Positions 7,701-53,026 are shown, counted from the stretch's first letter. The stretch is 64,000 nucleotides of DNA from Armatimonadota bacterium (GCA_041690135.1 JAWLHY010000001.1:1-64000), one strand, 5' to 3'. Notes: generated from the letters alone by a model not told the origin. Numbers and translations are program-made.

Positions 7701-9764
7701 GACCGGACGTATCACTACCGCGCGCGGGCCGTCAATGCCTCGGGTTTTTCGGTCTACTCTCCCGTCAGTAGCGCCCGGACCCTACCCACGCCGCCCGGAC
7801 GGCCGGAGAACCTGGCGGCCGCGTATCTCGCCGGCCTGGGAGTTCGCCTCACCTGGACGCCCGGTGCGGGCAGCACCCCGGCGGGGATCAAAGTCGAGCG
7901 CTCGGAAAACGCCGGGGGAACCTTCACCCAGATCGGCGTAACCGCGGGGACAGGGGTCCTCTTCGACGACACGACGGCACAGTTGGACCGTGTGTACCTG
8001 TACCGGGTGCGCGCCTACAACGACGGGGGCCACTCGCTGTTCACGCTGCCCGTTACGCTGACCACCCCGCCCGCGGCCCCGACCCAACTGGCGTTGACGG
8101 AAGTCACAGCGACCCGGATCACGCTGACCTGGCACGACAACAGCGGGACGGAATCGGGCTACCGGATCGAGCGGCGGGTGAACAACAACCCCTTCGGATT
8201 CCTGGTGCAGGTGGGGGCGAACGCCCAGACGTACGCCGACAACTCGGTATCCGGCAACGCCACCTACACTTATCGGGTCCGTGCCCTGGGCCCCGGCGGC
8301 GAATCTCCCTGGTCGAACGAGGCCGGCGCCCTGGCCGCTCCCGCCCCGCCGGTGGCGGTGAGTGCGACCGCCCTCTCCAGCCACACGGTGAAGATCGAGT
8401 GGACGGACAGCAACCCGAGCTTCGTGCAGCATAAGCTGGAACGCTCCACGGATGGGGGAGTCACGTTCAGCCAGGTGACCGTGCTGAACCCGGGCGTTGC
8501 GGAGTACCAGGACACCGGTCGGGGTGCCAACACTCCCTACCACTATCGTTTGCGCGCGTCCAACGCCTCCGGCGATTCCCAATATTCCCCCACCGTTTCC
8601 GCCCTGACCTACCCCGTGGCGGCGGCCAACCTGGTGGTCATGCCGGTCTCCGCGTCGCGGCTCGACCTCCAGTGGACGGACGGCAATCCCCGTTCCTGCG
8701 CGCACCGCATCCAGCGATCGACCGATGGCGGCAACACTTTCACGACACTGGCGACCCGACCCGCGGGAACGACCACCTACGCGGACGAGAGCTGCCAGCC
8801 CAACTCCACTTACCGCTACCGCGTAGCGGCGGAGAACGCCTCGGCCGTTTCGGCCTACACGGCCACAGTCCAGGGCCTTACGCGCCCAGCGGCACCGGCG
8901 GACTTCACGGCGGCCGGCATCTCGCAGACGCGCATCCGCCTGCAGTGGAGCGATACCAACCCCACGCCCGTGGCACATCAGGTCGAGCAGTCCCTGGACG
9001 GGGGCGGCGCCTTCTCCTTGCTGGCAACCGTACCCGCCGGCACTACCACGTACGAAGTGGAAGTCGCCAACCCGGCGATCACCTACGTGTACCAGGTCCG
9101 GGCCATCAACGCCAGTGGCCCCTCACCGTTCGCCGGCCCGGTGAGCGCAGCCGTGCTCCCGGCGCCTCCCGCCGCACCGACCGGATTGATCGCCCGCGCC
9201 ATCACGCCCGACCAGATCGAAGTGCTCTGGGGAGACCAGAGCGCCAACGAGACCGGGTTCGAACTGGAACGGCGCACGCCGACCGGTGCCTTCACACTCC
9301 TGGCCTCGCTCGCCGCCAACACCACCCGGTACCTCGACACCGACCTGGGTGTGGAAACCACCTATATCTACCGCCTGCGCGCCGTCAACGCGGGAGGCGC
9401 TTCCGCGTACACCTCCGAGGTCCTGGTGGAACGTCCGCAGGGTGGGAAGCTGGTGGTTGCCCCGGCAAAGGTGAACTTCGGCACCCACCGCATCCGGAGG
9501 GGCGGGCCCCGGCCGGTCCGCCGCATCGTCACCCTGCGGAACACCGGTCGCGGTAGCCTGGGCGTGAGCATCGGTTCGCTCGGCGCGCCGTTCCAGATCA
9601 CCGCCGGGAGCGGCAGTTACACTCTGGGACCGCGCAAAAGCCTGAAGGTCCGGGTTGAGTTCACGCCGACAACGTCCGGCACCTATTCGGCCGTGCTGAG
9701 CGTGACCTCCACCGACCCGGCGAAGAGCAGCGTGCAGGTGCCGGTGAGCGCTCGCGTAAGGTAA
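4716..9764 (+). CDS. Large secreted adhesin-like protein: C-type lectin, FG-GAP repeats, LamG, nine FN3 repeats, C-terminal Ig-like (choice-of-anchor D/ASH-like) domain
   Basis: Signal peptide; WDQGEPNN..WND lectin motif; repeated D-x-N/D-G-D-G-x-x-D; FHGRIDELQVYDRAL; nine LxW-D...YxYRVRA repeats. Confidence 0.88.
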   Translation: MGPLRERPRVRAGFVLALLLCLGLFLPLQAPAQTSSGPVFNPATGHWYESVGVVGGITWADAKAAAESRSYQGRQGYLATLTTAEENQWLGANLPLAKQGKYLLGGFQPAGSPEPAGGWRWVTDEPMNYIHWDQGEPNNVLTAEEVLALATTGRWNDARGSDLHPGYVVEYGLTPPTAQLITFAPPVDIPIFFPADLSAIDLDQDGHLDICAASNNDIAILYGRGDGTFQNPLYLGLNAYIAQTIAADVDGDGDLDIIAAGATTVHVVRRNLPRTYALPERYVVVPSRVYGVHARDFNGDGRPEIAVSNHDGHRLVILPNQGNGTYGTPTSYNAGSFPGRITSADWNGDGRVDLAMTNIVSGTVSLYYGNAQGGFSSQVTVSTNGQYPTQLVTTDMNGDGILDLVTGNTFGHTVAILRGNGNGTFQAGVTYPGNTYPHILAAVDLDNDGDPDIATPNNGTNYFTVLRNTAGVLGAPLGFTSTGNNTRTLAAGDFNEDGRIDIVVGNESSSSLSLFLNTTAFPAPVAPVGLVSWWRGEGNAQDATGRNPGQLANGTNFAPGVVGQAFSFDGINDGINLGDPDSLKLTQSFTFAAWIYVQSLPPAGFGRFILFRGDNRGGLDPYQFVVQSNGNLAVGINSLSASHGLATPIQTGRWVHVAATLDHASNALRLYLDGQQVAQSTTPTRPFRNLDPTQSPGVGIGNVQSVPNPFHNHPFHGRIDELQVYDRALTAPEIAELVGPVPSAPPAPVNLQATPVSESEIELLWQDNSSNETSFEVERRTEATPYAPIASLGANTNFYSSGGLSAETRYYFRVRARNAFGESAYSNEADAITLAPPPPPPLPAAPSGLVATPVSSAEIDLTWQDNSTTETAFLIERKTGSDPFAQIASVGANLRSYRSSGLNASTGYVYRVRARNATGDSAYSNEATGLTFPLPPPAFAAAAASASQINLTLTDGNSTPVGHRIERSANGGATYVEVAALPAGTTSHADTGLDADRTYHYRARAVNASGFSVYSPVSSARTLPTPPGRPENLAAAYLAGLGVRLTWTPGAGSTPAGIKVERSENAGGTFTQIGVTAGTGVLFDDTTAQLDRVYLYRVRAYNDGGHSLFTLPVTLTTPPAAPTQLALTEVTATRITLTWHDNSGTESGYRIERRVNNNPFGFLVQVGANAQTYADNSVSGNATYTYRVRALGPGGESPWSNEAGALAAPAPPVAVSATALSSHTVKIEWTDSNPSFVQHKLERSTDGGVTFSQVTVLNPGVAEYQDTGRGANTPYHYRLRASNASGDSQYSPTVSALTYPVAAANLVVMPVSASRLDLQWTDGNPRSCAHRIQRSTDGGNTFTTLATRPAGTTTYADESCQPNSTYRYRVAAENASAVSAYTATVQGLTRPAAPADFTAAGISQTRIRLQWSDTNPTPVAHQVEQSLDGGGAFSLLATVPAGTTTYEVEVANPAITYVYQVRAINASGPSPFAGPVSAAVLPAPPAAPTGLIARAITPDQIEVLWGDQSANETGFELERRTPTGAFTLLASLAANTTRYLDTDLGVETTYIYRLRAVNAGGASAYTSEVLVERPQGGKLVVAPAKVNFGTHRIRRGGPRPVRRIVTLRNTGRGSLGVSIGSLGAPFQITAGSGSYTLGPRKSLKVRVEFTPTTSGTYSAVLSVTSTDPAKSSVQVPVSARVR

Positions 9765-12621: not shown

Positions 12622-14166
12622 TCAGGCCAGGAGGTCCCGCATCACGTCGTGGGTTTCCACGAGGGGAAGGGGGCGCTGCTGCGGGTCCAAGATCATCATG
12701 TGCGGATCGATCCCCAGGAGGTGGTAGATCGTGCAGAGCACTTCCTTCGGCGACACGGGCCGCTCGTCCGGGTAGCCGGCGTGCTCGTCCGTCTTGCCGA
12801 TCACCGCGCCTTCCCGGATGCCGGCGCCGGCGAACAGGTTGCAGTAGGCGTGCGACCAGTGCCCCCGGCCCCCGCCGCCCTGCGGGCCCTGGCCATCGAC
12901 TCCCGCATCCATCTTGGGGGTCCGGCCGTGCTCGCACATCACGCAGACCAGCGTCTCGTCCAGCATGCCGCGGTCGTCAAGGTCCTGCATCAGGGCGGAA
13001 AAAGCGCGGTCGAAGCCGGGGCAAAGCTCCGTCTTCAGGCGCTTCTCCAGGAAAACGTGGGTGTCCCAGGCGGAGTTGCCCAGGTTGTACTCGTCCCAGA
13101 AGACGGTCACCACCCGGGCGCCCGCTTCCAGCAGCCGCCGCCCGGCCAGGGTCGCCTGCCCGAACAGGGTCATCCCGTAGGCCTCGCGAGTCTTCATGGA
13201 TTCCGACTGGATATCCATCGCGCCGCGGAGCTTGTCGGAGGTCAGGAGATTCAACGCCAGCTGGCGCGAGCGGTCCCACGCGCGGACCTCGTCCATCTCG
13301 TCGAGTGCGGCGCGCTGGCTGTCGAACTGGCTGAGAATCGATTGGCGGCGGCTGAGGCGGTCCAGCGTGATGTCTCGCGACTGCCGCCCCGGTGAGAAAG
13401 TGAAGCGGGTTTCGGGAGTAATTCCCCCATAAGGGTTCTCCCGCCCCTGGCCATAGGGATCCTCGCCGGTGGACTTACCTTCCCAACTGGACACCACGGG
13501 CGCCCAGCCGGTACCGAGCCAGTGGGGCTGCGGGCCGGGACGGCGGAAGGTGTGGGGCAGCACCAGGTTCGTGGGAATCGTTTTCTCCGGCAGCCCCGCC
13601 CGGCGCCGGTGCATCGTATCCACGTAGTCCACCACGGAACCGAAGTAAGGCCAGTGCCGCGGGTCCCGGGTGTTCACTTCCCGGGCCAGGTCGGTGGTCC
13701 CCATCCCGGTGAGGGTGAAGGAGACCCCGTGGATCGGGTACTCATGGGTCATGGTCCGCACGGTCGCCACCCGGTGCATCCACTTCGCCATGCGGGGCAG
13801 GTGCTCGCTGATCTCGATGCTGGAGTTGGACGTGCGGATCGGCTTGAAGGGACCGCGAACCTCTTCGGGAGCGTTGGGCTTCATGTCCCACGTCTCGAGC
13901 TGGGACGGAGAACCGTAAAGGAAGAGGATGATGACGTTCTTCGCCTTGCCGAAGGTGGAGCCGCCCCCGGCCGGTTTTCCACCTGGGTTTCCATCCAGCT
14001 TTCCGGCGCCGAGCGGGGCGGCCTGCACCGCCTGGGCGTTTTGCAGGGCGAAGATGTCTCCCAGGGTCAGGCCGAAAAGCGACAGGGCGCCGGCCTGAAT
14101 CAGGTCGCGGCGGGCCACGCCGTCGCACAGCTTCTTGTTGTTCCCCAGGATCCGCAGTACCGACAT
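12622..14166 (-). CDS. DUF1501 domain protein
   Basis: RRDLIQAG leader, PSQLETWDMKP, RRLLEAG, WDTH, EHGRTPK, GRGHW. Confidence 0.9.
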   Translation of the reverse strand: MSVLRILGNNKKLCDGVARRDLIQAGALSLFGLTLGDIFALQNAQAVQAAPLGAGKLDGNPGGKPAGGGSTFGKAKNVIILFLYGSPSQLETWDMKPNAPEEVRGPFKPIRTSNSSIEISEHLPRMAKWMHRVATVRTMTHEYPIHGVSFTLTGMGTTDLAREVNTRDPRHWPYFGSVVDYVDTMHRRRAGLPEKTIPTNLVLPHTFRRPGPQPHWLGTGWAPVVSSWEGKSTGEDPYGQGRENPYGGITPETRFTFSPGRQSRDITLDRLSRRQSILSQFDSQRAALDEMDEVRAWDRSRQLALNLLTSDKLRGAMDIQSESMKTREAYGMTLFGQATLAGRRLLEAGARVVTVFWDEYNLGNSAWDTHVFLEKRLKTELCPGFDRAFSALMQDLDDRGMLDETLVCVMCEHGRTPKMDAGVDGQGPQGGGGRGHWSHAYCNLFAGAGIREGAVIGKTDEHAGYPDERPVSPKEVLCTIYHLLGIDPHMMILDPQQRPLPLVETHDVMRDLLA

Positions 14167-14281
14167 GCTTGCTCCCCGGCACGCAGCTCCGCGCGCCCAC
14201 TTCACTAAGAGTCCATTTATCCCCGTGAGTTACGTCGTGAAAGGCAACGAGGGCACCCTCAACAGTATTCCAACCCGGGCC

Positions 14282-18598: not shown

Positions 18599-18811
18599 GA
18601 TTAGGATTCGGATGACGATTAAGATTACGCAAGGCCAGTTTGGAGCCCCATGTGGAGCTCGCATTCCCGTGTGGTCTCATTGACACGGATGTCACGGACA
18701 GCACGGATACTCACGGTAACCGCTCCGGCCGTAAGCCCAACCGTACCCACCGCAGTTTCCGAGGTTCCCAACCTTCAACATTTCAACCTTCCAACCTGCA
18801 ACATTCCAACC
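18599..18811. repeat. Cluster of degenerate 6-, 9- and 8-mer tandem repeats
   Basis: gattaggattcggatgacgattaagattacg; cacggatgtcacggacagcacggatactcacgg; caaccttcaacatttcaaccttccaacctgcaacattccaac. Confidence 0.65.
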
Positions 18812-18846
18812 CTGAACACGTCCCGTCATTTCGCATCCGCCCCGCC

Positions 18847-19062
18847 TCAGTCCAGGTCCTACTTGGCGAAGTAGTTGGCGAAGACGAGTCCGCCCTTGCC
18901 GCCGCCGATCCGCACGGAAGAAGTGCGGCCAAGGGCCCAGATCGCGGGAAGGCTCCAGGCATCCCCGGTATGGACGTTATTGTCCACGACGTAGTCGGCG
19001 GCCAGGGAGAAGTGGGGGCAGGGGGAGTACGCGAGACCGAACGCGGGGATGAAGTCCGATTC
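18847..19062 (-). pseudogene. 3' remnant of a third beta-barrel paralog
   Basis: SDFIPAFGLAYSPCPHFSLAADYVVDNNV...SSVRIGGGKGGLVFANYFAK*DLD* aligns with DDFIAGVGATY..NFSVSADYLINNDV...IFANYLRKWDWR; TAG at the Trp position; 5' part absent. Confidence 0.8.
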
Positions 19063-19461
19063 CCAGCCAGCCACCATTGCACACCGGGCGAGCGAGCGGA
19101 TTCTCAGACTCATCGAAGGTTCCTCATTTCGCGATTGGGGAGCCTCGTCGATACACCGGACGAACGATTATCCGGGGGTTCGCCACTCCACCTTTCGAAG
19201 GTAGTTTGCCGGCCCAGGGAATCCTACCGCTTGCCAGGCAGGATTCCAACCCCGATCAGAGATAAACTGGAAAGCGGGAAGCTGGCGGGCCGTTCGGCAA
19301 TCCGCCGATGCCCCGTTTCCCGCATAGCGAAGATTAACCGGTCGTATTGCGGCCTTGCAGGACGGGATGCAGTCCGGGGTCGTGGGCGGCGGATCGCGGG
19401 AGTTACCGCGATCGATTTCACCGGCCCGGCGCCCCAGGCGGCTCGGCAGAAGGAGAGATGC

Positions 19462-22416
19462 ATGGTGTCCAGACGGCATCGAGCAGGCGCAGGCATGCTG
19501 GCGGTGACTGCGCTCGGTATGCTCGTACCAATGCGGCAGTCACAGGCCCGCTCGGAAGACGTGGGGAAACCCAGCCCGTTCCAGGTGGTCGACTACAACA
19601 ACGGCAATAACGCCTGGGATGACGCGGTCCGCGGGAACCCACAGGCTCGCCCGGCGCACCTCGATAAGGCGGAACGCCTCTTCGAGAAGGCGGCGGCCGG
19701 TCGCAGCCGGTTCCCGGAAGCCCTGCTGGCGCTGGGACTGGTCCGCTTCACCCGCAACAACCTGCGGGGCGCCGAGACGGCCTTCCGTGAGGTCGCCGCG
19801 CTGCAGAAGGGCTACCTGCGCGCGGAAGCGTTGACTTATCTCGGTCTCGTCCATCTTTACAACCACCACTGGTCGGACGCGCAGAATGCCTTCCAGTCCG
19901 CGATGGATGAAAAGAGCGAGGAGTACACGGCCTGGATGGGGCCGAAGGGGCGGGAGAAACTGTCGCAGACCTACCACGACCGCCGGATGGGTCTCGACGC
20001 CCTGGACCGCATGGGCATTGCTATCGCCGGCTTCCAGGCCGCCAAGGCGAAAGCCGGGCCCGGCAGCGACCCCCGGAAGCTGCTGGCGGACACCGAGAAG
20101 CTGCTCCCGCCGGACGAACTCGCCCGGTGCGCCACCTATTTCAACGGCGTCGACGCGGCCCTCTGGAATTTCACGCCGCCCGCCGGTGAATGGCGCTACA
20201 GCCTCCGCGATGGTCTCCCGCCCGATGTCCGCCCCGTCACCCCGTCGGATCTCATCCGGTCGCTGCGGATCTGGGCGGCGGCGGAACTGGCGATCGAGCC
20301 CCCGGCGAACCTGCCGCCAGTGGCGGAGCTGAGTGACACCGACCGCCAGAACCTGGCGGCGGGGCAGGTAAAACGCGCGCTGAAGCTGGAAGCGGCCGGC
20401 AACACCGCCGCCGCGCTGGCGGCCTGGGAACAGGTCGCGAAGCTTCCCGGCTACGAACTGCCCGCCCGGCAGCACCGCATTTATCTCCTGCTCCGTCCGG
20501 CCGCCGGAGGCAAGGCGCCCTCCGCAGCCAGCATCGACCAGGCGCGGCAGTTGATCCGCGGACCGCTGGCGGACAAAGACCCCCTGGTTTATGACCAGCA
20601 GATGGCGCTGGTCAGCGCGATCCTGGCCGGCGCTCCCGCTTCCGGGACGGCCCGCCGGCCAGTGGTGGCGCTCGCCCGCACTGAATGCCGGCTCGTTCTC
20701 AACGGGATTCCCGGCGCCGGCAAGGCCCCGACCTCCGGCCCCGTCCGGGACCGCGCAGAGATGACCGTCGGGCTCCTGGCCGCGGAGGCCGAAAACCCCG
20801 GCGACCTCAACCACTGGCGAACAGCGCTGACCGAGTGCCCCGCCCGGCCCGGACGGGAACGGCTACGCTACTACCTGACCCAACAGCTCGCCCTCGCCGC
20901 CGTAAACGGCCGCCAGCCGGAGCAGGCAGCCGCCGCCCTGAACCAGGCCAACATCATTGCGACCGGGGGAGAAGGGAACGGCACGACCGCCCTCCCCGGG
21001 GCTACCGCCGAGGTCGCGAAGCTGCGCCGGTACATGGTCGCCCGAGTTTTCGAGCTCAAGGATGCGGACCGCTACCGGACCACGCTCCTGAAGGATAGCG
21101 ACTACATTGGTGAGTACCTCGCCTACCTGGCTTCGGAGGAGGCAAAGGCACTCGACGCGGCGCTGAAGGCGAACCCGACGCCCGGCCCCGAGGCCCAGGC
21201 CCGCTGGCAGGCGATCGGCAAAAAGCTGGAAGAGGCACGGGCGCACTCCGGAGCCAACAGCGCGCTCACCGCGAAGCTGGACGCGGACCTCGCCGAGATC
21301 AAGGCCTACAGCACCGCGGTCGACTCCTTCCCGCCCACGATTGCCGTGGCCTGGACCGAGGCCGCCGGAAAGACCAACCAGGCGGCGAAGCCGGCCGACT
21401 GGGATGTGGCCGCCACCTCCTGGCGCGGCGTGCTCGCCATGATGGTGGGGCGCCCCGCAACGGAACGGCGGGAGGTGGCCCTACACGTGGTCCACTCCCA
21501 CCTGCGGAAGGCGGACGTGTTGTATGCCGAAGGCAAAAAGGATGCTGCCCGGACGGCCCTGCGGCAGGCCCGCGCCGAACTCATCACGATGCCCGAGGCC
21601 GTGGGGAGCCACCTGACCCAGGAGGACAAGGAGCGGATCGAGCAGCGCGTTTCCAACAACGGTAAGGCGCTCAATGCCGGGACTTACCTCGCCGGAACCA
21701 AAGGGGAAAAGAACATCCCGGGCTTCCGCGGGTCCACCCTCAAGCCCGTGGCCACCGAGTGCGTGATTATCCGCTACAAGTCGCCGCATACTCCCAATGT
21801 GGACCAGTGGCTGCAGGATCTGCGCACCCATCCGAGTGCTGTGCGACGCCTGGTGGACTGGTTTAATAACGGGCCTGTTGCCCAGAAGACCCCCGGCGCC
21901 AAGCGGGACTTCAGTGCAAACCCGTCCTCACCCAACTACCTGGTCACCTTCCTGGAGAAGCACGCATACCGGAAGCCGGGCGCGCTGCCGGTGGGCACGG
22001 TCCAGTGGTGCGACCACAACGGGAAGGGCCCGTGGCACGGTAGTGTCATCAAGAAGGCCGGAGGCGCTGCCTACTACCTGAAGGACGGCACCCCGATTAT
22101 CCGAACGGTCTGTTCCAACCCCATCGGCGTAATCCGTACCTACACGGTCACCGCCGAGTGGATCCCCCAGGAGGAAAGTGCTTCGCCGCGGGCGGTTCCG
22201 GGCTACCCGAGCATTGCTTACGGCAAGCCCGTGACGCCGGTGGCTCCGGGGGGTTGGACTGAAAGGCCACAGGTCTACGTCCTGACGGCGGCCACGGCGC
22301 CCAAGGTGAACACGGTGGCCCCTACGGCGACCCTGGTGGCTACCACACACGTGCTGCCGCAGCTGGCGCTGCCCCGGTGCCAGGTACCGGAGCCGGTCAA
22401 GCGGGCTTCCCGGTAG
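19462..22416 (+). CDS. Large secreted TPR/helical protein with a C-terminal domain resembling DUF6777
   Basis: aaggag RBS before ATG 19462; signal-like N-terminus; TPRs (EALLALGLVRF, EALTYLGLVHL); C-terminal DGTPIIRTVCSNP. Confidence 0.7.
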   Translation: MVSRRHRAGAGMLAVTALGMLVPMRQSQARSEDVGKPSPFQVVDYNNGNNAWDDAVRGNPQARPAHLDKAERLFEKAAAGRSRFPEALLALGLVRFTRNNLRGAETAFREVAALQKGYLRAEALTYLGLVHLYNHHWSDAQNAFQSAMDEKSEEYTAWMGPKGREKLSQTYHDRRMGLDALDRMGIAIAGFQAAKAKAGPGSDPRKLLADTEKLLPPDELARCATYFNGVDAALWNFTPPAGEWRYSLRDGLPPDVRPVTPSDLIRSLRIWAAAELAIEPPANLPPVAELSDTDRQNLAAGQVKRALKLEAAGNTAAALAAWEQVAKLPGYELPARQHRIYLLLRPAAGGKAPSAASIDQARQLIRGPLADKDPLVYDQQMALVSAILAGAPASGTARRPVVALARTECRLVLNGIPGAGKAPTSGPVRDRAEMTVGLLAAEAENPGDLNHWRTALTECPARPGRERLRYYLTQQLALAAVNGRQPEQAAAALNQANIIATGGEGNGTTALPGATAEVAKLRRYMVARVFELKDADRYRTTLLKDSDYIGEYLAYLASEEAKALDAALKANPTPGPEAQARWQAIGKKLEEARAHSGANSALTAKLDADLAEIKAYSTAVDSFPPTIAVAWTEAAGKTNQAAKPADWDVAATSWRGVLAMMVGRPATERREVALHVVHSHLRKADVLYAEGKKDAARTALRQARAELITMPEAVGSHLTQEDKERIEQRVSNNGKALNAGTYLAGTKGEKNIPGFRGSTLKPVATECVIIRYKSPHTPNVDQWLQDLRTHPSAVRRLVDWFNNGPVAQKTPGAKRDFSANPSSPNYLVTFLEKHAYRKPGALPVGTVQWCDHNGKGPWHGSVIKKAGGAAYYLKDGTPIIRTVCSNPIGVIRTYTVTAEWIPQEESASPRAVPGYPSIAYGKPVTPVAPGGWTERPQVYVLTAATAPKVNTVAPTATLVATTHVLPQLALPRCQVPEPVKRASR

Positions 22417-37702: not shown

Positions 37703-38986
37703 TCAGCCGACCAACTCTGGGATCGGCGAGGCGTCGTGGATCAGCGGTATGGGACGGGCCTGCTGATCCATGAAGACCGCCTCCGGATCGATGCCCAGCG
37801 CGTGATAGAGGGTGGCCACTACCTCGCGGACGCGGTATGGCTTGTCCTTTGCCTCGTGCGCGTCCGGGGTGGTGGAACCGATGGCCTGGCCCATCTTCAG
37901 GCCGCCTCCCGCGATCAGCACCGACATCACGGCGGGCCAGTGGTCGCGCCCGGCGGTGCCGTTGACGCGCGGCGTGCGGCCGAACTCACCCCACACCACA
38001 ATCAGCGTATCCTGCTCCCGGCCCCGGTCCTTCAGGTCGTCCATCAGGGCCGTCAGGCTCTGGTCGAGCGGCGGCATGATATTCCGGAGCTGCTTGAAGT
38101 TATCGCTGTGCGTATCCCAACCGCCGACCTCGATGGCGACGCACTGCACCCCGGCCTCGATCAAGCGGCGCGCCCGCAGGAAATGCTCGTAGGGGTAGCG
38201 CTTGCGGGTCTTCTCATCTTCCCTGGAGATGTCGAGCGCCGTGTAGGTCGCGCTGGAGCTGACCAGCTCGAGTGCCCGCTGCGCGAAGACGCTCTGGGCC
38301 TCGACCGCACCACTCTCCACCGTCGCACGAAACCGGTTGACCTTGTCCAGCAGCTTACGCCGGCCGTTCAGGCGGTCCGTGCTCACCTGCAGGCGTAGAT
38401 CCTCGCGGCCCGGCCCCTCGTAGACATACGGCTCGGTCTGCGTGCCCAGGTGTGCCCCTCCCAGGCCGGTTTCGTAGTTGTAGCCCCGCAGGCTGACATA
38501 GGGAGGCACCAGGGACTCCGGTTTTCCCCGCAGCCGCGCCAGCACGGAGCCGATACACGGCTTGTCTCCCTGGGCGCGACGCTCCGTGAAGCCGTAACCG
38601 GTGCACATCAACGAGGAGGCATGCTCCTCCGGCAGCACCCGGTGGACGGAGCGCAGCACGGCCAGGCGGTCCATCCGCTGCGCTTGGAGGGGGAACAGCT
38701 CGCACATCTGTACCCCGGGCACGTTGGTGTCGATCGCCTTGAACTCGCCGCGGATCTCGACCGGCGCTTCCGGTTTGGGGTCGTAAGTATCCACGTGGGA
38801 GGGCCCTCCACCCAGGTGGATCATCACGATCGAAGTGGCCTTACCCCGTGCAGGCGCCGCTTCGGCGCGGAGCTGCAGCAGGTTCGGGAGGGAAAGACCG
38901 GCGATACCGAGTGTGCCGATCCGGAGCGCGTCGCGCCGGGTAACTCCACGGCACAACCGGTAGGACTGCCCTTGAAGGGTGATCAC
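37703..38986 (-). CDS. DUF1501 domain protein
   Basis: TRRDALRIG, GGPSHVDTYDPKP, ARRLIEAGV, GWDTH, GEFGRTP, GRDHW. Confidence 0.92.
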   Translation of the reverse strand: MITLQGQSYRLCRGVTRRDALRIGTLGIAGLSLPNLLQLRAEAAPARGKATSIVMIHLGGGPSHVDTYDPKPEAPVEIRGEFKAIDTNVPGVQMCELFPLQAQRMDRLAVLRSVHRVLPEEHASSLMCTGYGFTERRAQGDKPCIGSVLARLRGKPESLVPPYVSLRGYNYETGLGGAHLGTQTEPYVYEGPGREDLRLQVSTDRLNGRRKLLDKVNRFRATVESGAVEAQSVFAQRALELVSSSATYTALDISREDEKTRKRYPYEHFLRARRLIEAGVQCVAIEVGGWDTHSDNFKQLRNIMPPLDQSLTALMDDLKDRGREQDTLIVVWGEFGRTPRVNGTAGRDHWPAVMSVLIAGGGLKMGQAIGSTTPDAHEAKDKPYRVREVVATLYHALGIDPEAVFMDQQARPIPLIHDASPIPELVG

Positions 38987-45912: not shown

Positions 45913-47967
45913 ATGCCATCGCCCGACCCACTCAAGCCGCCTGTTGCTCGCCGCCTGGATCACGTCCACACGATCCACGGCGATCTCCGCGAGGACCCTT
46001 ACTTCTGGCTCCGGGAGAAGGCAAACCCCGACGTGACCGCTTACCTCCAGGCGGAGAACGCGTACGCCGATGCCGTGATGGCGCCGACTGCGGAGCTGCA
46101 GGAGACCCTGTACCAGGAGATGCTCGGCCGGATCCAGGAGACGGACGTTTCCGCCCCCTATCCGGAGAACGGCTACTTCTACTATGAACGCACCGAGGCG
46201 GGGAAACAGTACCGCATCCAGTGCCGGAAGCAGGGAAGCCTCGACGCTCCGGAGCAGGCCTACCTCGATCTAAACGTGCTCGCGGAGGGACACCCGTTCC
46301 TGGCGGTCCACGTCTCCACCGTCACCGACGACGGCCACCTCCTGGCCTACTCCGTGGATACCTCCGGGTTCCGCGAGTACGAGCTGTTCATCCGGAACCT
46401 GCGCACGGGCGAGACCCTGCCGGACCGGCTGGGCAAAGTAGCCGGCGCAGTGTGGGCGAACGACGGCCGCACCCTTTTCTACCTGACCGAGGACGACGCC
46501 AAGCGGTCCTACCGGCTGTACCGCCATGTGCTCGGCACCTCCAAAGAGGACGACGAGCTGATTTACGAGGAGACGGACGCCCTTTTCAGGCTGTCCCTGT
46601 GGCGCTCGGAGAGCCGGGCCTACCTCTTCCTGACTTCTTCCAGCTTCACTTCGTCCGAGGTGCGGTACGTGCCCGCCGACCGCCCCGCGGAGCCGTTCCG
46701 CCTCCTGCTGCCGCGCGAGCCGGACCACGAGTACTATCTCTCCCACCATGGGGACCGGTTCTACATCCGGACCAACGATCGGGGAAGAAACTTCCGGCTG
46801 GTCTCCGCACCCGTCGCCGACCCCGGCAAGCAGAATTGGGAAGAAGTCCTGCCGCACCGGCCCGAGGTGATGCTCTCCTGGGTGATTTTCTTCCAGGACC
46901 ACTGGGTGGCGCTGGAGCGGGAGGATGGCCTGCAGCAGTTCCGCGTCGCCGACCTGCGCACCGGGGACCAGCACCGCGTCGAGTTTCCCGAGCCGATCTA
47001 CTCCGCCTTTGCGGACCACAACGCCGAGTTCGACACCCGGGTGTTCCGTTTCAGCTACCAGTCACTCGTCACGCCGGCCTCCGTTTTCGAGTACGACATG
47101 GAGACCCGCCAGCGGACCCTGGTGAAGCAGACGGAGGTCCGGGGCGGCTACGATGCCTCGCTCTATGCCTCGGAGCGCGTCTTCACCACCGCCTCGGACG
47201 GCACCCGGGTGCCGATTTCCCTGGTTTACCGCAAGGACCTCCGCCGCGACGGCCAGCGTCCGCTCTTCCTGTACGGCTACGGCTCCTACGGCTTCTCGCT
47301 GCCGATCCTCTTCCAGTCCGAGCGCCTCTCCCTGCTCGACCGCGGCGTGATCTACGCCATGGCCCACATCCGGGGTGGGGGAGAAATGGGCAAGCCCTGG
47401 CACGACCACGGGAAGATGCTGGAGAAGCGGAACACCTTCACCGACTTCATCGCCTGCGCCGAACACCTGGTCCGCGAGGGCTACACTTCGCCGGACCGGC
47501 TCGCGATCAGCGGCGGCAGCGCCGGCGGGCTGCTGATGGGCGCGGTGGTCAACATGCGCCCGGACCTCTTCCGGGCCGTGCTCTCCTACGTGCCGTTCGT
47601 GGACGTCCTCAACACCATGCTCGACGCCTCGCTCCCGCTGACGGTAGGGGAGTACCTGGAGTGGGGCAATCCCAACGTCCCGGCGGAGTACGCGTACATG
47701 AAAAGCTACTGCCCCTACACCAACCTGGAGGGGAAAGCTTACCCCGCAATGCTCGTGCGCACCTCCCTGAACGATAGCCAAGTGATGTACTGGGAGCCCG
47801 CCAAGTACGTCGCCCGGCTCCGCACCCTGAAAACGGACGACGCGCCCCTGCTGTTGAAGACGAACATGGGGGCCGGCCACGGGGGCGCCTCCGGCCGCTA
47901 CGACGCCCTCCGAGACCGCGCCTACGACTACGCCTTTCTGCTCCGAGAACTCGGGGCCGACGTCTAG
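45913..47967 (+). CDS. ptrB: Oligopeptidase B (S9A)
   Basis: HGD.REDPYFWLR, YGYGSYG, HIRGGGE, GGSAGG, NDSQV.YWEPAK, GHGGASGR. Confidence 0.93.
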   Translation: MPSPDPLKPPVARRLDHVHTIHGDLREDPYFWLREKANPDVTAYLQAENAYADAVMAPTAELQETLYQEMLGRIQETDVSAPYPENGYFYYERTEAGKQYRIQCRKQGSLDAPEQAYLDLNVLAEGHPFLAVHVSTVTDDGHLLAYSVDTSGFREYELFIRNLRTGETLPDRLGKVAGAVWANDGRTLFYLTEDDAKRSYRLYRHVLGTSKEDDELIYEETDALFRLSLWRSESRAYLFLTSSSFTSSEVRYVPADRPAEPFRLLLPREPDHEYYLSHHGDRFYIRTNDRGRNFRLVSAPVADPGKQNWEEVLPHRPEVMLSWVIFFQDHWVALEREDGLQQFRVADLRTGDQHRVEFPEPIYSAFADHNAEFDTRVFRFSYQSLVTPASVFEYDMETRQRTLVKQTEVRGGYDASLYASERVFTTASDGTRVPISLVYRKDLRRDGQRPLFLYGYGSYGFSLPILFQSERLSLLDRGVIYAMAHIRGGGEMGKPWHDHGKMLEKRNTFTDFIACAEHLVREGYTSPDRLAISGGSAGGLLMGAVVNMRPDLFRAVLSYVPFVDVLNTMLDASLPLTVGEYLEWGNPNVPAEYAYMKSYCPYTNLEGKAYPAMLVRTSLNDSQVMYWEPAKYVARLRTLKTDDAPLLLKTNMGAGHGGASGRYDALRDRAYDYAFLLRELGADV

Positions 47968-48021: not shown

Positions 48022-49269
48022 TCAGACAAGCGTGTCCTGGATGGCCCGCACCAGATCCGGGCTCTCCCAGTAGATCCCGTGCGTGTTCAACCCGTGGGAA
48101 AGGAGGTGTGCCGTCTGGCGGTCGTCCGGTGCCTTGCCGTTGTGGAGCCGGAACACCTTCCCGGCGACGAAGGCCAGGGGGTCCAGCGGATGCCACAGGT
48201 TGGTCCAGCGGTCGATCGACGGGGGTAAGGCAACGGGACTTCCCGGGCTGTATACCCCCAAGGTCCTTTCACGCGGGTCGACCAGGTGGAAGAAGGCGGA
48301 CTGGCTCCCAAAGGTGACCAGGCCGTTGATCCAGAGGGGATCGGGGCTCCTTGTCGCCATGTCCACCGCGATTACCCCACCCAGGCTGTGCGCGACGACG
48401 TGGACCGGCTTCTGCTCCGTGCCGTATCCCGGAGCTTCTTTGGCCAGGGCCGCCGTCAGCGTTGCGTGGATCGCCGCCTGCTGGCGCTGATAGACAAATA
48501 CGTCGCCCAGGAAGCTCCCGACCGGCGCGGCAATGTTCGCGCGGAACTTCTGGTTGAAATTCCCCGCCACGTGCCCGACGGTGGCCCCAACGACCCGGTC
48601 CAGCTCTTTCAAGACCGCTCCCGCCAGTTTCCGGATGCTGTCTTTCACGCCGCGTGTATCGTCCGTGCCCAGGCCACCCATCACGAGATCGCCAGGCCCG
48701 CCGGTTGCGCCGCCCAGGTCCAGACCACCCCCGTCGCGGACCAGCGATCCCCCCGCATCTCCCTCACCCACAACACCGGGGGAAGCACCGTCCCGCACGG
48801 CGGTCCCGATAGCCCGACCGACCGCCTCCAGCACGCCTTCATCTTCCAATAGCTTCAGGTAAGTGGTGTTGGGCCACTCTTCCCGGATCGCTTCGGCCAG
48901 CGCGTCGGTCCCGTCCGGCCCGCGCACGGCCTCGGAAGGAGCATCTCCCTTCGCCGCGGTCGCGGCTCGGACGACAACGTCGGCCTGCTCTTCGCCCCTG
49001 ACCACCGGCGCTGCGCCTCCCTCCAGCATGCCGCGCAGCAGTTCATCCGCAAGGGCTTCGTCCATGCCGCCGCCGGGGCCTCGCACGCCACCCGGCATGA
49101 CGGGCAGGCTGTCTGAGAGGTGCTCCAGCCTGGCCCCCAGGTCTCCCCAATACACGGGGATCATCTTCCAATCCGAGCCGGCTCGCCGGCCCAACGCCTT
49201 GACGCTGGCGATGAAGTCGTCCCGATCACGCGTAGCCACACCGTGGACTACCAGCACCGGTTCCGCCAT
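48022..49269 (-). CDS. Alpha/beta-hydrolase (lipase-like) with a large low-complexity insert
   Basis: VVHGV, YWGD, FLGDVFVY, HVVAHSLGG nucleophile elbow, TFGSQ, DPL, H..YW; ggagg RBS. Confidence 0.8.
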   Translation of the reverse strand: MAEPVLVVHGVATRDRDDFIASVKALGRRAGSDWKMIPVYWGDLGARLEHLSDSLPVMPGGVRGPGGGMDEALADELLRGMLEGGAAPVVRGEEQADVVVRAATAAKGDAPSEAVRGPDGTDALAEAIREEWPNTTYLKLLEDEGVLEAVGRAIGTAVRDGASPGVVGEGDAGGSLVRDGGGLDLGGATGGPGDLVMGGLGTDDTRGVKDSIRKLAGAVLKELDRVVGATVGHVAGNFNQKFRANIAAPVGSFLGDVFVYQRQQAAIHATLTAALAKEAPGYGTEQKPVHVVAHSLGGVIAVDMATRSPDPLWINGLVTFGSQSAFFHLVDPRERTLGVYSPGSPVALPPSIDRWTNLWHPLDPLAFVAGKVFRLHNGKAPDDRQTAHLLSHGLNTHGIYWESPDLVRAIQDTLV

Positions 49270-49296
49270 TGCATGCCTCCTGTTTTCCAAATTGGC

Positions 49297-51396
49297 CTAG
49301 GGTCCAACCAGCGTTGCCGCCGGATCTCCATAGAGCGTGTATGCCAGCCAGGTCGGGTCCCCCGGTTCGGACTGGATCGCCTGCCGGGCCTGGCGCAGCG
49401 CCTCTCCCAGGTTCTCACCGTCGAGCAGGGCCTGGTAAAAGTGCCCCGCAAACTCGGCCGCCGTGGTGTCCCGCACCTCCCAAAGCGAGCCGACGAACGC
49501 GCCGGCTCCCTGCGAGAGGAAGCCGTTCGCCCATCCCGCCAGTCGCGTGTAGTTGGCCGCCTGCCCGTCCGAGCGACAGGCGTTCATGAACACCAGCGGC
49601 ACCTGCTTCCGGAGACTGCGCTGCATGGAGGCCAGCAGCGCCGGTGTAAACGGCGATGGCCCAAAGGCCACGTGGGAAGCGGTGGGGTTCTGCGGCTGAA
49701 AAGTGTTGTGGCAGGCGAAGTGCAGCAGGTCGAAGTCCGCCGCCTCCAGCCGGTCGAGCAACTCGTCCAGGTCGTCCACGGGAGTGGTGGCGGGAACCCC
49801 CAGCAGCTCGCGAAGCGCCTGGATCTCGGCGTCGGCGCTGGCGGGAGACCCGGCCGGTCGGACGAAAACGGGAGCAGCGCGGTGAAGCTCGGCTACCGGC
49901 GGCGTGCGTCCCTGCCAGCGCGCGATGGGAAACTGCTCGACCAGGAAACCTCGGTCCTGCGGCTCGTCCCCCTCGGGTGCGGTGGGGTAGAGGATTTCCC
50001 AGGGGATGGGGTCCCCATCGGCCTGGATGATCAGCCGGCGGATGTCGGCATGGCGCTCCCAGAAGAGGCGCTGGAGATCGGCGGGGAACAACTCCTGCCA
50101 GAGCACAATGCCATGCCCCTTCAGCGCCCGGCGCGTGGTGGAGGCGGAGTACTGGAGGCGGTTGCGCGCCATCAGGTTGAACTGCGCCACCACATCTTCC
50201 ACGCATTTGTCGGGCGTCCGCCGGAGGCGGGCCGACTCCATCGGCTCGTAGAAGCCGATCGTGTCGTCGATGAACTGGTAGCGGTAGACCTGGTCCTCCT
50301 CATCGTACCGGATGAACAGGGTGACCTCCCCGGGCTGGCGCTGGCGCGGCGGCATGCCGGACCGACGGGCGACACTCGGGCCTGTCGCCGCCACCGGGTC
50401 CACGGTGACCTGCATCTGCAGGGCGCCCAGGAACATACCTCCCAGGAAAGCGGAGACCCTTACGTCGCACACACCCTGCTTCTCCGCGCGGAGACGGAAC
50501 AGTGCCGGGTCCGAGTCCTGTCCCGCCGGAACGTGGACGACTCGGGACGTTCCTTCCAGGGGAGCGAAACCCGGGCTCTGGAGCACCAGGCGGACGTCCT
50601 GATCCTCAAGAGAAACGCGGTCCCTCAGGGCAGCGGTGGAAGCCCCGGCGCCCCGCAAGAGGGAAACGGTTATCAACAACTCCGTCTCCTCGCCCAGGCG
50701 CACGCGCTCCGGCATTTCGCCGTTCAGGTAACGCGTCACCGGCGCCTCTGCTGTCCCGGCAGCCGCCGTGGTGTCTCCCGAGCGCACGGCCCGGGGACTA
50801 TCCCCGGCACTGCCATCGAGTTCAAAGGCGGTTTCTTCCCACCCTCCACGCACGGTTGGGGTCGTGGGCGCGCCCCAGCCCCCGGATCCGCTTCCGACTG
50901 CGTCACTCGTGCCCTCGCGAAATCCGAACCGCTCTTCTCCGAAATCATTCCCACCGGGTCGGAAAGACTCTTCCCGGGTCTCATCCATGCGCGGTTCCAT
51001 GCGCGGTACGGGTCGCTCGCCCCCGCCGTTCGCCATCGCCCGGCGATCTTCGCCCGGCCAGGTCGGCCGCGCCGGACCGGTGTCCAGTGTGGCCATCAGC
51101 CACGCCCGCAGGGTCGCCGGTGATACCTCCTCCAGTGGGGTCAGCGGGCCGCCTTCCAGACCGACAACGGCCCCTGCCGGAAAGCCGGTCTCCTTATCCA
51201 GAAGAATCTCGGCCACGGCGTCCGCATCTTGCAATCCCGCGTGGTGACCGCGCCGCAGGGTGAGGAACCATTGCACCCGTTTCACCGAGGGCTCCTCGTC
51301 TTTGCGAAGGTCAACATGCGATGCCAGGCGCTCGGCGAGCGCGGCACTCCGGTCTTTGGAAACCGCCGGGGAAACGAGAACAAGAGCGGCGGACAT
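49297..51396 (-). CDS. CHAT (caspase-like) protease with TCAD7-like beta-sandwich and unknown N-terminal domain
   Basis: IPWEILY, LLHFACH, LVFMNACRS dyad, GAFVGSLWEV.D, DPTWLAYTLYGDP; RYLNGEMPERV central domain. Confidence 0.88.
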   Translation of the reverse strand: MSAALVLVSPAVSKDRSAALAERLASHVDLRKDEEPSVKRVQWFLTLRRGHHAGLQDADAVAEILLDKETGFPAGAVVGLEGGPLTPLEEVSPATLRAWLMATLDTGPARPTWPGEDRRAMANGGGERPVPRMEPRMDETREESFRPGGNDFGEERFGFREGTSDAVGSGSGGWGAPTTPTVRGGWEETAFELDGSAGDSPRAVRSGDTTAAAGTAEAPVTRYLNGEMPERVRLGEETELLITVSLLRGAGASTAALRDRVSLEDQDVRLVLQSPGFAPLEGTSRVVHVPAGQDSDPALFRLRAEKQGVCDVRVSAFLGGMFLGALQMQVTVDPVAATGPSVARRSGMPPRQRQPGEVTLFIRYDEEDQVYRYQFIDDTIGFYEPMESARLRRTPDKCVEDVVAQFNLMARNRLQYSASTTRRALKGHGIVLWQELFPADLQRLFWERHADIRRLIIQADGDPIPWEILYPTAPEGDEPQDRGFLVEQFPIARWQGRTPPVAELHRAAPVFVRPAGSPASADAEIQALRELLGVPATTPVDDLDELLDRLEAADFDLLHFACHNTFQPQNPTASHVAFGPSPFTPALLASMQRSLRKQVPLVFMNACRSDGQAANYTRLAGWANGFLSQGAGAFVGSLWEVRDTTAAEFAGHFYQALLDGENLGEALRQARQAIQSEPGDPTWLAYTLYGDPAATLVGP

Positions 51397-51694
51397 GGGC
51401 TTTCCTCCGATCTCCTGCATGCGGGCAAGAAGGGGGGTGTCTATCGGGTTAACATTCGTAAACCGGGGTCATCCTTCCTTCAATGCGAGGTCCGGAAATC
51501 GCTCCATGGCTCGAGGCGTCCAAAACGCATGCAACTCCGCCCGGCGTACTCGGCTCATGACTTCCGGCCGCCTGCGCGACCTCCCGAAGTTGCCGCCGGA
51601 ACAACGCCGGATAGATAATTGCTCGGGGCCCGGGCCGGCGGTGCGCCGCTCAGTCGGCCGGCGACCGCCTTTCAAGTGGAGTGAGGAAGACCAG

Positions 51695-53026
51695 ATGCTG
51701 ACCATTCAAGGAGACCCCCAGCGCTACTGCGACGGCGTCTCCCGCCGCGAGTTCCTGAAGATCGGCGCCATGACGATGGGTGGCCTCACGCTCACCGACC
51801 TCCTGGCGGCCGAAGCACAGGCGGGCGTCCGCTCCTCGCACAAGTCGGTCATCATCGTCTATCTCCCCGGCGGGCTGGGGCACCAGGATTCGCTCGACCT
51901 CAAGATGGAGGCCCCATCCGAGATCCGCGGCGACTTCAAACCGATCCCCACCAACGTCTCGGGGATCGAGATCTGCGAGTTGATGCCGCGCCTGGCGAAG
52001 GCGATGGATAAGTTCACTATCCTCCGCTCCCTGGTCGGGGCGCGGGACGAGCACGCCAACCCGCTCTGCCTCAGCGGCTTCACGATGGCGGAGACCAACA
52101 AGAACCATCCCTGCCTGGGGGCCTCCATCGCGAAGATTTTCGGGCCCGTCGAGAAGACCGTCCCGCCCCACGTGGACCTGATCCCGAAGACCCAGCACAA
52201 GCCGTACTCCATTCCCGCCGCCAGCGGGTTCCTGGGCCGGGCCTACTCCGCGGCCCGCGTGGACGGGGACGGCGCCGAAGATATGACGCTCAAGGGCATC
52301 ACCCTGCAGCGCCTGCAGGACCGCAAGCGGTTGCTGGCTTCGGTGGATCGTTTCCGCAAGGCGGTCGACGACAGCGACATGGTCCAGGCGCAGGACATCG
52401 CCACTCAGCAGGCGTTCAACATCCTCACCTCGGCAAAGTTCGTGGAGGCGCTGGACGTGTCACGGGAGGACCCGAAGGTCCTGGAGAAGTACGGAAAGGG
52501 ATACGACAAGGTGGTGGGCGACGCCTGCCCCTGTAAGAACGAGCAGTTCCTGGCGGCCCGGCGGCTCGTGGAGGCGGGGGTCCGCTGTGTTTCCCTCGGC
52601 TACGGCTTCTGGGACTTCCACGGCGGCAACACCGGCAATATGAAGAAGTACCTGCCGATGCTGGACCAGGCCATCACCGCCCTGGTGCAGGATCTCCACG
52701 ATCGGGGCCTGGATAAGGACGTGTCCGTGCTGATGTGGGGCGACTTCGGCCGCACGCCCAAGATCAACAAAGACGCCGGGCGGGACCACTGGCCCCACGT
52801 GGCTTCCGCCCTGGTCGCTGGCGGTGGCATGCGCACCGGCCAGGTGATCGGCAGCACCACCAAAGACGGCGGCTACGCCGACGAACGCCCGATCCATTAC
52901 CGCGACGTGATGGCGACCCTCCTCCACCAGATGGGCTTCGACGTCCGCCACCAGCAAACCACCGACCAGCTCGACCGGCCCCAGTTCCTCTACCCCGGCC
53001 ATGAGCCCATAGAGGAGTTGATCTAA
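51695..53026 (+). CDS. DUF1501 domain protein
   Basis: SRREFLKIG, ARRLVEAGV, WDFH, GDFGRTPKIN..GRDHW. Confidence 0.92.
   Translation: MLTIQGDPQRYCDGVSRREFLKIGAMTMGGLTLTDLLAAEAQAGVRSSHKSVIIVYLPGGLGHQDSLDLKMEAPSEIRGDFKPIPTNVSGIEICELMPRLAKAMDKFTILRSLVGARDEHANPLCLSGFTMAETNKNHPCLGASIAKIFGPVEKTVPPHVDLIPKTQHKPYSIPAASGFLGRAYSAARVDGDGAEDMTLKGITLQRLQDRKRLLASVDRFRKAVDDSDMVQAQDIATQQAFNILTSAKFVEALDVSREDPKVLEKYGKGYDKVVGDACPCKNEQFLAARRLVEAGVRCVSLGYGFWDFHGGNTGNMKKYLPMLDQAITALVQDLHDRGLDKDVSVLMWGDFGRTPKINKDAGRDHWPHVASALVAGGGMRTGQVIGSTTKDGGYADERPIHYRDVMATLLHQMGFDVRHQQTTDQLDRPQFLYPGHEPIEELI

Follow-up and report, generated by a model that had tools for sequence, protein, structure and literature searches.

A CHAT protease and a lipase-like hydrolase encoded side by side

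The window analyzed here, a stretch of 64,000 nucleotides (nt) from an Armatimonadota bacterium (GCA_041690135.1 JAWLHY010000001.1:1-64000), carries at positions 48,022 to 51,396 of its minus strand a conserved two-gene cassette of a CHAT (clan CD, caspase-like) cysteine protease and a lipase-like minimal alpha/beta hydrolase, on which the protease most likely works as on a protease-gated zymogen. Gene 1, the protease gene (49297..51396, minus strand; assigned from translation, Pfam, an AlphaFold model and Foldseek), lies in an open reading frame (ORF) spanning 49297-51420, of which the in-frame ATG at 51396 yields a product of 699 amino acids (aa). Gene 2 (48022..49269, minus strand; assigned from translation, alignments and a model) lies in an ORF spanning 48022-49290 and encodes, from the ATG at 49269, the hydrolase of 415 aa and predicted zymogen. 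An initial annotation made from the sequence alone had described two co-oriented genes with 27 nt between them and a GGAGG ribosome-binding site in front of each, and the ORF listing and translation bear this out: the stop codon of gene 1 ends at 49297 and gene 2 starts at 49269, with a GGAGG located 7 nt ahead of the first ATG (51404..51408, minus strand) and another 6 nt ahead of the second (49276..49280, minus strand).

The gene 1 product is a CHAT protein by profile score, catalytic dyad and caspase-like fold. Its catalytic domain (residues 432-691; 49324..50103, minus strand; from Pfam and alignment) matches Pfam CHAT (PF12770) with an E-value of 2.8e-30 and 106.2 bits against a cut-off of 24, and it contains the motifs HFACH (His559, His563) and MNAC (Cys607), with the codons of His563 and Cys607 at 49708-49710 and 49576-49578 of the minus strand. 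Both histidines and Cys607 are invariant in an alignment of 52 CHAT homologs, as are Glu467, Arg493 and Glu524. The AlphaFold model is confident over residues 222-699 (predicted local distance difference test, pLDDT, of ca. 90), where it shows two beta-rich domains and a helical segment followed by the CHAT domain, and the conserved protease core begins near residue 222, the usual start of tblastn matches to homologs. The first of these domains is a beta-sandwich resembling DUF7363 (residues 222-345; 50362..50733, minus strand) that rests on an all-beta model segment and a sub-threshold Pfam match at residues 227-316 (26.2 bits, under the cut-off of 28.3); a literature search by the name DUF7363 turned up nothing. 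Foldseek comparisons of the model retrieved Csx29/TPR-CHAT (E 4.5e-12), separases, SAVED-CHAT, DdvA and the Arg-specific gingipain R, with E-values of 1e-12 to 1e-9 for the Csx29 and separase matches.

Ahead of this core lies an orphan N-terminal region (residues 1-220; 50737..51396, minus strand; defined by searches and model) that is a possible sensor or adaptor, with a fast-evolving tail as the alternative. Most of residues 1-212 have a pLDDT below 50, and residues 110-220, rich in Gly, Arg, Glu and Ala, are modeled at low confidence. Residues 1-125 found no relative except themselves among 1.84 billion representative proteins and no match in an Atlas search. The GC content at third codon positions is 0.68-0.75 in the region of residues 1-220 compared to ca. 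0.85 in the CHAT part, so that its codon-position signal is weaker but still looks coding.

The gene 2 product contains HSLGG (Ser295), PLDP (Asp363) and THGIYW (His397), with codons at 48385-48387, 48181-48183 and 48079-48081 of the minus strand, as well as a putative oxyanion motif, His9-Gly10; all of these are invariant across alignments of 22 and 74 members. The catalytic motifs quoted for both proteins in the initial annotation (HFACH, MNAC, HSLGG, DP and H..YW) are thus all present. Pfam detects alpha/beta-hydrolase matches around the HSLGG nucleophile elbow, but since every one of these models scores below its cut-off, it cannot be assigned to any curated Pfam family, and NCBIfam returned nothing over cut-off for either product of the pair. 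Judged by eye, the N-terminus (MAEPVLVVHGV...) is the first core strand rather than a leader. In the AlphaFold model (built with the alignment of 74 sequences; mean pLDDT 83), a large, helical insertion (about residues 50-280) interrupts a minimal alpha/beta core, with low-confidence loops at 61-68, ca. 108-119 and 166-201. From sequence and model, the protein therefore qualifies as a lipase-like minimal alpha/beta hydrolase, since it combines the core fold with a His-Gly at the oxyanion position and a predicted triad whose Ser sits on the nucleophile elbow. A word-indexed search found 236 relatives at an E-value of 0.001 or better; among the 120 matches listed, these are proteins of ca. 370-430 aa, nearly all labeled hypothetical and mostly from Streptomyces, with Terriglobia, Chloroflexota and Hymenobacter likewise represented.

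Conservation of the pair and its variable front ends

A genome scan with the hydrolase alignment recovered 113 relatives, of which the best 80 loci were kept for the pairing counts; their taxa include Acidobacteriota, Actinomycetota, Bacteroidota, Pseudomonadota and Lindowbacteria. The window CHAT protein has tblastn matches in 59 of the 80 loci, almost always over query residues ca. 222-696. At 55 loci a co-oriented CHAT gene precedes the hydrolase and ends less than 400 nt before its start, commonly with a gap of -4 to +36 nt and in many cases with a 4-nt overlap, and at three others (L024, L027 and L060) it lies just downstream. Adjacent pairing is hence seen at 58/80 loci, which answers in the affirmative the question of homolog co-location that the initial annotation had put up for checking. 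Pairwise distances of hydrolases and CHAT cores correlate with r = 0.948 over 53 pairs (52 loci and the window), a value reached in 0 of 999 permutations. An all-against-all clustering of 4166 locus ORFs revealed no third gene family common to the CHAT-linked loci, the next clusters reflecting either ORFs antisense to the CHAT gene or the shared gene order of Phycisphaerae. Some loci carry additional protease genes, including a second CHAT gene at L011, L032 and L036 and, at L062 and L063, a Trypsin_2-NACHT gene that comes after the pair and has transposases next to it.

The 22 remaining loci fall into several situations. Twelve are short hydrolase forms that lack the insert (L066-L068, L072-L080). 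At two the hydrolase sits at a contig end (L003, L014), two have partial hydrolase matches (L050 and L059, the latter with a CHAT gene ca. 675 nt away), and at one (L064) the reading frame leaves the family after the first residues. At two more the hydrolase pairs with another protease class: L071, where a Trypsin_2-NB-ARC-TPR protein follows it, and L030, where a metallo-beta-lactamase (MBL) joined to a Peptidase_C25-like protein does. The last three (L023, L039, L065) show no protease gene in the examined flanks.

Two loci deserve a note of their own. At L030 (5972-11786, Abditibacteriota), the hydrolase is preceded by an SMC-like ATPase with a PADLOC mad3 match, and the protein of 864 aa that follows it combines an MBL part (matching the PADLOC LmuA, RT-associated MBL and Avs1a models) with a Peptidase_C25-like C-terminus; two protease-linked effector types may be assembled there. 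At L081 (6446-12886) on a Hymenobacter plasmid (NZ_CP095052.1), a TerB-family gene, a CHAT gene of 348 aa overlapping it by 40 nt, the hydrolase and a further CHAT gene of 857 aa follow one another; the TerB and 348-aa CHAT ORFs may be one split gene.

CHAT homologs align only with the C-terminal two thirds of the window protein, and what lies in front differs from locus to locus. All 52 hydrolase-adjacent CHAT ORFs match CHAT, and 24 of them carry an N-terminal Pfam domain; their lengths are upper bounds because each ORF was read from the first start codon that follows a stop. These domains are VWA_3 with VWA_3_C (four loci: L010, L018, L020 and L021), NACHT with or without NNH1 (four loci), CbiA/ParA (three), NNH1 with a ParA-like (CbiA) domain (one), DUF6232 (two), Sigma70_r2 (two), Abhydrolase_1 (two: L027 and L060) and, at a single locus each, Pkinase, Cpn60_TCP1 (L034), DUF7144 with SHOCT, TCAD7 (L005), fvmX2/fvmX3 (L042) and NIT with HATPase_c. 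Among metagenomic relatives, precomputed Pfam accessions point to further fusions, with an EAD-type domain, with dynamin, with a response regulator and with an LCAT/PGAP1 lipase. On these domain assignments, the pattern is that of a constant effector cassette recombined with many putative sensors or adaptors. At the Nocardia locus L034 (4921-7986), the Cpn60/TCP-1 chaperonin domain precedes the CHAT core, reminiscent of the DnaK fusions of protease-effector modules mentioned in a recent preprint (Evans et al. 2025; PMC12642450).

An arginine-bearing insert and the gating model

The part of the hydrolase that would be cut out comprises residues 64-206 (48652..49080, minus strand) and is delineated by motifs, conserved Arg columns and model loops. 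Eight motif matches occur in the window protein, among them V-R-G at R63, R91 and R116, V-R-D at R159 and R178, and T-R-G at R206, and four Arg sites are conserved across the family: R63 (Arg in 67/74 sequences), R91 (47/74), R116 (66/74) and R178 (67/74). These columns sit in an otherwise variable insert and are accompanied by Val or Leu at P2 and Gly, Asp, Ala or Ser at P1'. R63, R116 and R178 lie in poorly modeled, mostly non-helical stretches, and R91 comes directly ahead of a helix (92-107) that is modeled with high confidence. To judge by the alignment, conserved Arg residues followed by a small residue thus flank a predicted excisable inhibitory segment.

The insert also varies with the partner. 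CHAT-paired hydrolases carry two to eight such motifs within it, the insert-less short forms none to two, and the trypsin-paired L071 and the unpaired L065 none at all. The Trp-to-Ser spacing covers 206-274 residues in CHAT-paired forms compared to 137 in 11 of the 12 short forms and 88 in L077. All short forms are unpaired; they come from Phycisphaerae, other Planctomycetota and one Longimicrobiaceae, and what they miss corresponds roughly to residues 57-150 of the window hydrolase. Eleven of them (L066-L068, L072-L076 and L078-L080, from Phycisphaerae and other Planctomycetota) are ca. 305-330 aa long and located at about 8001-8940 in most loci, in a conserved housekeeping-like synteny with ScpB, N-acetylmuramoyl-alanine amidase, an ArsC-family protein and a peptide ABC transporter. 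None has an adjoining protease gene, and the neighboring genes in Phycisphaerae gave no clue to a substrate. In the Longimicrobiaceae member L077 (566-2374), a protein of 602 aa, a long HEAT-repeat region follows the short-form core at the C-terminal end. With its conserved Arg sites and its co-occurrence with a protease partner, the insert matches the expectation for an inhibitory segment that a protease can remove.

The conserved synteny, the co-variation, the Arg motifs in the insert, the insert-less unpaired paralogs and the pairing of the hydrolase with further protease classes all speak for a conserved functional pair, with the hydrolase most plausibly as a latent effector that CHAT cleavage sets free. 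They lend good support to the protease-activated effector proposed in the initial annotation, though the idea is not new. In the mechanism that we propose, the CHAT protease with its His563/Cys607 dyad would be held inactive until its N-terminal region or another partner registers a signal. Once active, it would cut the hydrolase after the Arg of [V/L/T]-Arg-[Gly/Asp] motifs in the insert of ca. 140 helical or disordered residues (64-206). With the insert removed or nicked, the N-terminal piece, a strand-helix-strand unit that bears the His-Gly oxyanion motif, could join the C-terminal piece (a lid helix and the Ser295/Asp363/His397 triad) to form an active lipase-like serine hydrolase, and the freed enzyme would then damage the cell and bring about an abortive-infection-type or stress-type cell death. 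Co-folding of CHAT residues 222-699 with the hydrolase scored 0.00 against a mark of 0.32, which counts neither for nor against binding.

A closely similar principle has been described by Evans et al., whose preprint presents an alpha/beta hydrolase as "widespread in Actinobacteria and Pseudomonadota" and paired with proteases fused to diverse sensors. In Lysobacter capsici AZ78, LcCaspase cuts the LcHydrolase zymogen after Arg73 and Arg117, in each case an Arg followed by a Gly, and the N-terminal and C-terminal fragments of LcHydrolase together kill E. coli (PMC12642450). That the window pair behaves like this module, and with it the cut sites, a lipid or ester substrate, the trigger and an anti-phage role, is what we infer.

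Several observations weigh against this picture. Some concern the pairing itself, as the flanks examined around the full-length hydrolases of L023, L039 and L065 contain no protease gene, with L023 nevertheless retaining four Arg motifs, and the correlation of distances is partly expected from shared species history. Others concern the enzyme: Foldseek matches of the hydrolase model in the PDB are weak, with the DDHD domains of Nir2/Nir1 as the best (E 1.2e-3, TM 0.26-0.34) and Bacillus subtilis lipase A (LipA) next (TM up to 0.48 on the target), and neither single-sequence nor profile searches found a solved relative, so that "lipase-like" fits the fold of the hydrolase and not a demonstrated activity. 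For LcHydrolase, too, the preprint reports that no substrate was found, with lipases and oligopeptidases as the closest homology, and does not show phage defense for the hydrolase module (PMC12642450); the "membrane-damaging lipase" of the initial annotation therefore goes beyond a lipase-like fold. No Lysobacter protein is among the matches listed for the window hydrolase or for a Paracidovorax hydrolase used as a second query (120 each, few of them named). Atlas look-alikes of the hydrolase do include Lipase_3/PGAP1-type clusters of ca. 290-300 aa from Pseudomonadota, which we regard as a lead only.

A further group of such observations concerns the defense role that had been ascribed to the locus. 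PADLOC, which the initial annotation had suggested running, gave no match for the hydrolase and for the CHAT protein a single weak one to BovA (E 0.0014, 15.7 bits, residues 519-676), and the 18 neighboring window genes had no match at an E-value of 1e-5 or better. Given the housekeeping-like flanks and this lack of PADLOC matches, there is no defense-island support at the window locus. Nor did Pfam, Atlas or the search of 1.84 billion representatives reveal a recognizable sensor domain in the window CHAT protein, whose N-terminal 220 residues match nothing, and the "sensor" of the initial annotation is thus not borne out by these searches.

This setting lends some weight to a rather unlikely reading in which the CHAT protease activates the hydrolase by the same logic for a non-antiviral purpose, such as regulated self-destruction or stress signaling, for instance in developmental cell death or upon misfolded-protein or envelope stress. 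Besides the housekeeping-like surroundings of the window locus with no PADLOC matches nearby, it would fit that the family is commonest in Streptomyces, both among the matches listed and in the best 80 loci, and that Cpn60, sigma-70 region 2, kinases and ParA-like ATPases, none of them a classic phage sensor, occur among the N-terminal fusions. One published study raises stress responses for chaperone-fused modules (PMC12642450) and another ties such systems to multicellular bacteria (Kaur et al. 2020; PMC7159879). The contexts of relatives are mixed, however, and while many are not mobile or defense-like, some are: the Hymenobacter plasmid hydrolase lies near a recombinase, a DNA methyltransferase and a helicase, L008 has McrBC and a UvrD-type helicase upstream, transposases and Trypsin-NACHT genes accompany L062 and L063, and L030 has its MBL/LmuA-like and mad3-like genes. 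Furthermore, the NACHT/STAND fusions are typical of antiviral sensors.

We consider it improbable that the hydrolase is a partner enzyme of the CHAT protease rather than its substrate, with an esterase or deacylase and a peptidase acting on a third target and the Arg-rich insert serving docking or regulation. Short Arg motifs could indeed be structural or binding elements, cleavage in the window family is a prediction, and some CHAT homologs are fused to other alpha/beta hydrolases (P0125, L027, L060). But the insert is dispensable in the unpaired paralogs, its motifs combine a hydrophobic P2, an Arg at P1 and a small P1' with three of the four conserved sites in poorly modeled loops, the hydrolase pairs with unrelated protease classes as well, and the similar published module is cleaved at Arg-Gly sites (PMC12642450). 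The notion that two unrelated genes merely happen to be neighbors can practically be dismissed given a pair kept in 58/80 loci over several phyla with a distance correlation of r = 0.95.

Beyond protease gating of the hydrolase as such, we tentatively raise the rather doubtful possibility that the family is a distinct branch of protease-gated hydrolases, in which a ladder of four or more Arg sites would be cut by a C-terminal CHAT domain and set a graded threshold instead of a two-cut switch, with a so far unseen N-terminal sensor or adaptor in the window copy and with the insert-less Phycisphaerae paralogs as "already-open" versions. If this were true, these paralogs would offer a direct route to the substrate of the effector class.

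Genomic setting and comparison with known systems

The pair is placed between a Peptidase_S9 (ptrB-like) gene (45913-47967, plus strand; from Pfam) and a DUF1501 gene (ORF 51260-53026, plus strand; Pfam match from ORF residue 195), both oriented opposite to it, just as the initial annotation had described. The latter gene is one of three DUF1501 paralogs in the window (12622-14205, 37703-38986 and 51260-53026) and is divergently transcribed from the CHAT gene. The window has a GC content of 66% and otherwise looks like core chromosome, with aconitase-family subunits and an aspartyl-tRNA synthetase besides the three DUF1501 genes; no Rfam family or tRNA was found across it. We note two further plus-strand genes, an ORF of 1258 aa with coding-like GC at third codon positions (18640-22416) that has no Pfam match at an E-value of 1e-5 or better, and a protein of 1682 aa (4716-9764) with FG-GAP repeats, a LamG-like domain and several fibronectin type III domains that is probably a surface or secreted protein.

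Protease-gated death effectors are an emerging common logic of bacterial immunity that parallels animal caspase-gasdermin signaling, and hydrolases are among their abundant classes. The initial annotation did not recognize a named system, yet the pairing of a caspase with an alpha/beta hydrolase was described by Kaur et al. 2020 (PMC7159879) and characterized by Evans et al. 2025 (PMC12642450). The module kind is thus already described and the locus adds another member; since the principle of protease-gated hydrolases is published, the general picture does not change. New from the locus is a chromosomal example with no recognizable sensor, and new from the family is one CHAT and hydrolase cassette recombined with more than 12 front-end domains. 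The copy in the window is unusual only in the orphan N-terminal 220 residues of its CHAT protein and in its location outside a recognized defense island. Of interest in their own right are this N-terminal region, the Arg ladder with its multiple sites and the paralogs without an insert, which could help to find the substrate.

Among other protease systems, the type III-E CRISPR Craspase, in which Csx29 cleaves Csx30, is close by structure, as it provides the top structural matches and likewise has a CHAT protease with a neighboring gene product as substrate. An identification as Csx29 was nevertheless rejected: the NCBIfam model NF041237 scores 12.4 bits against a cut-off of 300 and the window protein has no TPR, and while the predicted substrate here is an enzyme zymogen, that of Craspase is a sigma-factor regulator. 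The pair also resembles gasdermin-protease operons and MBL/Pepco/EACC1 modules in that a latent death effector would stand beside an activating protease with variable sensors. Unlike the pore formers and nucleases of gasdermin, Pepco and EACC1 modules, the candidate effector here is a serine hydrolase, and the pair has no gasdermin, Pepco or EACC1 Pfam matches. Borvo is a single-gene CHAT defense system. Its BovA protein shares the CHAT domain with gene 1, but ours is a two-gene pair and the BovA match given above is partial and weak; with no full-length PADLOC match, this identity was rejected, too.

Closer still are the vWA-MoxR (VMAP)/GAP1 systems of Kaur et al. 2020, in which a caspase-superfamily domain is reported to occur "always" with a neighboring alpha/beta-hydrolase gene (PMC7159879), and a later study counts an alpha/beta hydrolase as a membrane-lipid effector (Kaur et al. 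2021; PMC8195603). The CHAT fusions of the relatives to vWA, fvmX2/3, TCAD7 and NACHT are families of the 2020 framework. Unlike these systems, the window copy lacks vWA, fvmX2/3, TCAD7 and NACHT domains, and there was no MoxR or VMAP gene in the scanned flanks of three of the four vWA-fused loci (L010, L020 and L021) or of the fvmX-fused L042.

The nearest match is the LcCaspase/LcHydrolase module, to which we compare the locus by its published description. Both consist of an adjacent caspase-superfamily protease and an uncharacterized lipase-like alpha/beta hydrolase, and both have, in the stretch leading from the N-terminal core strands to the catalytic part, a conserved Arg followed by a small residue, at R63 and R116 here and at R73 and R117 there. 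Both kinds are common in Actinobacteria and Pseudomonadota. Proteases fused to diverse sensors, as known for the LcCaspase module, are seen in the family at large (24/52 CHAT ORFs carry varied N-terminal domains); the N-terminus of the window protein itself matches nothing. In contrast to LcHydrolase, for which published fragment masses imply ca. 300 aa, the window hydrolase has 415 aa, a size difference that adds to the points against equating the two. It also differs in having four family-conserved Arg sites and a predicted excisable segment of ca. 140 residues instead of one of 44 residues. Finally, the catalytic Cys of LcCaspase is residue 129, whereas the protease domain of the window protein is C-terminal, with Cys607 placed behind a beta-sandwich.

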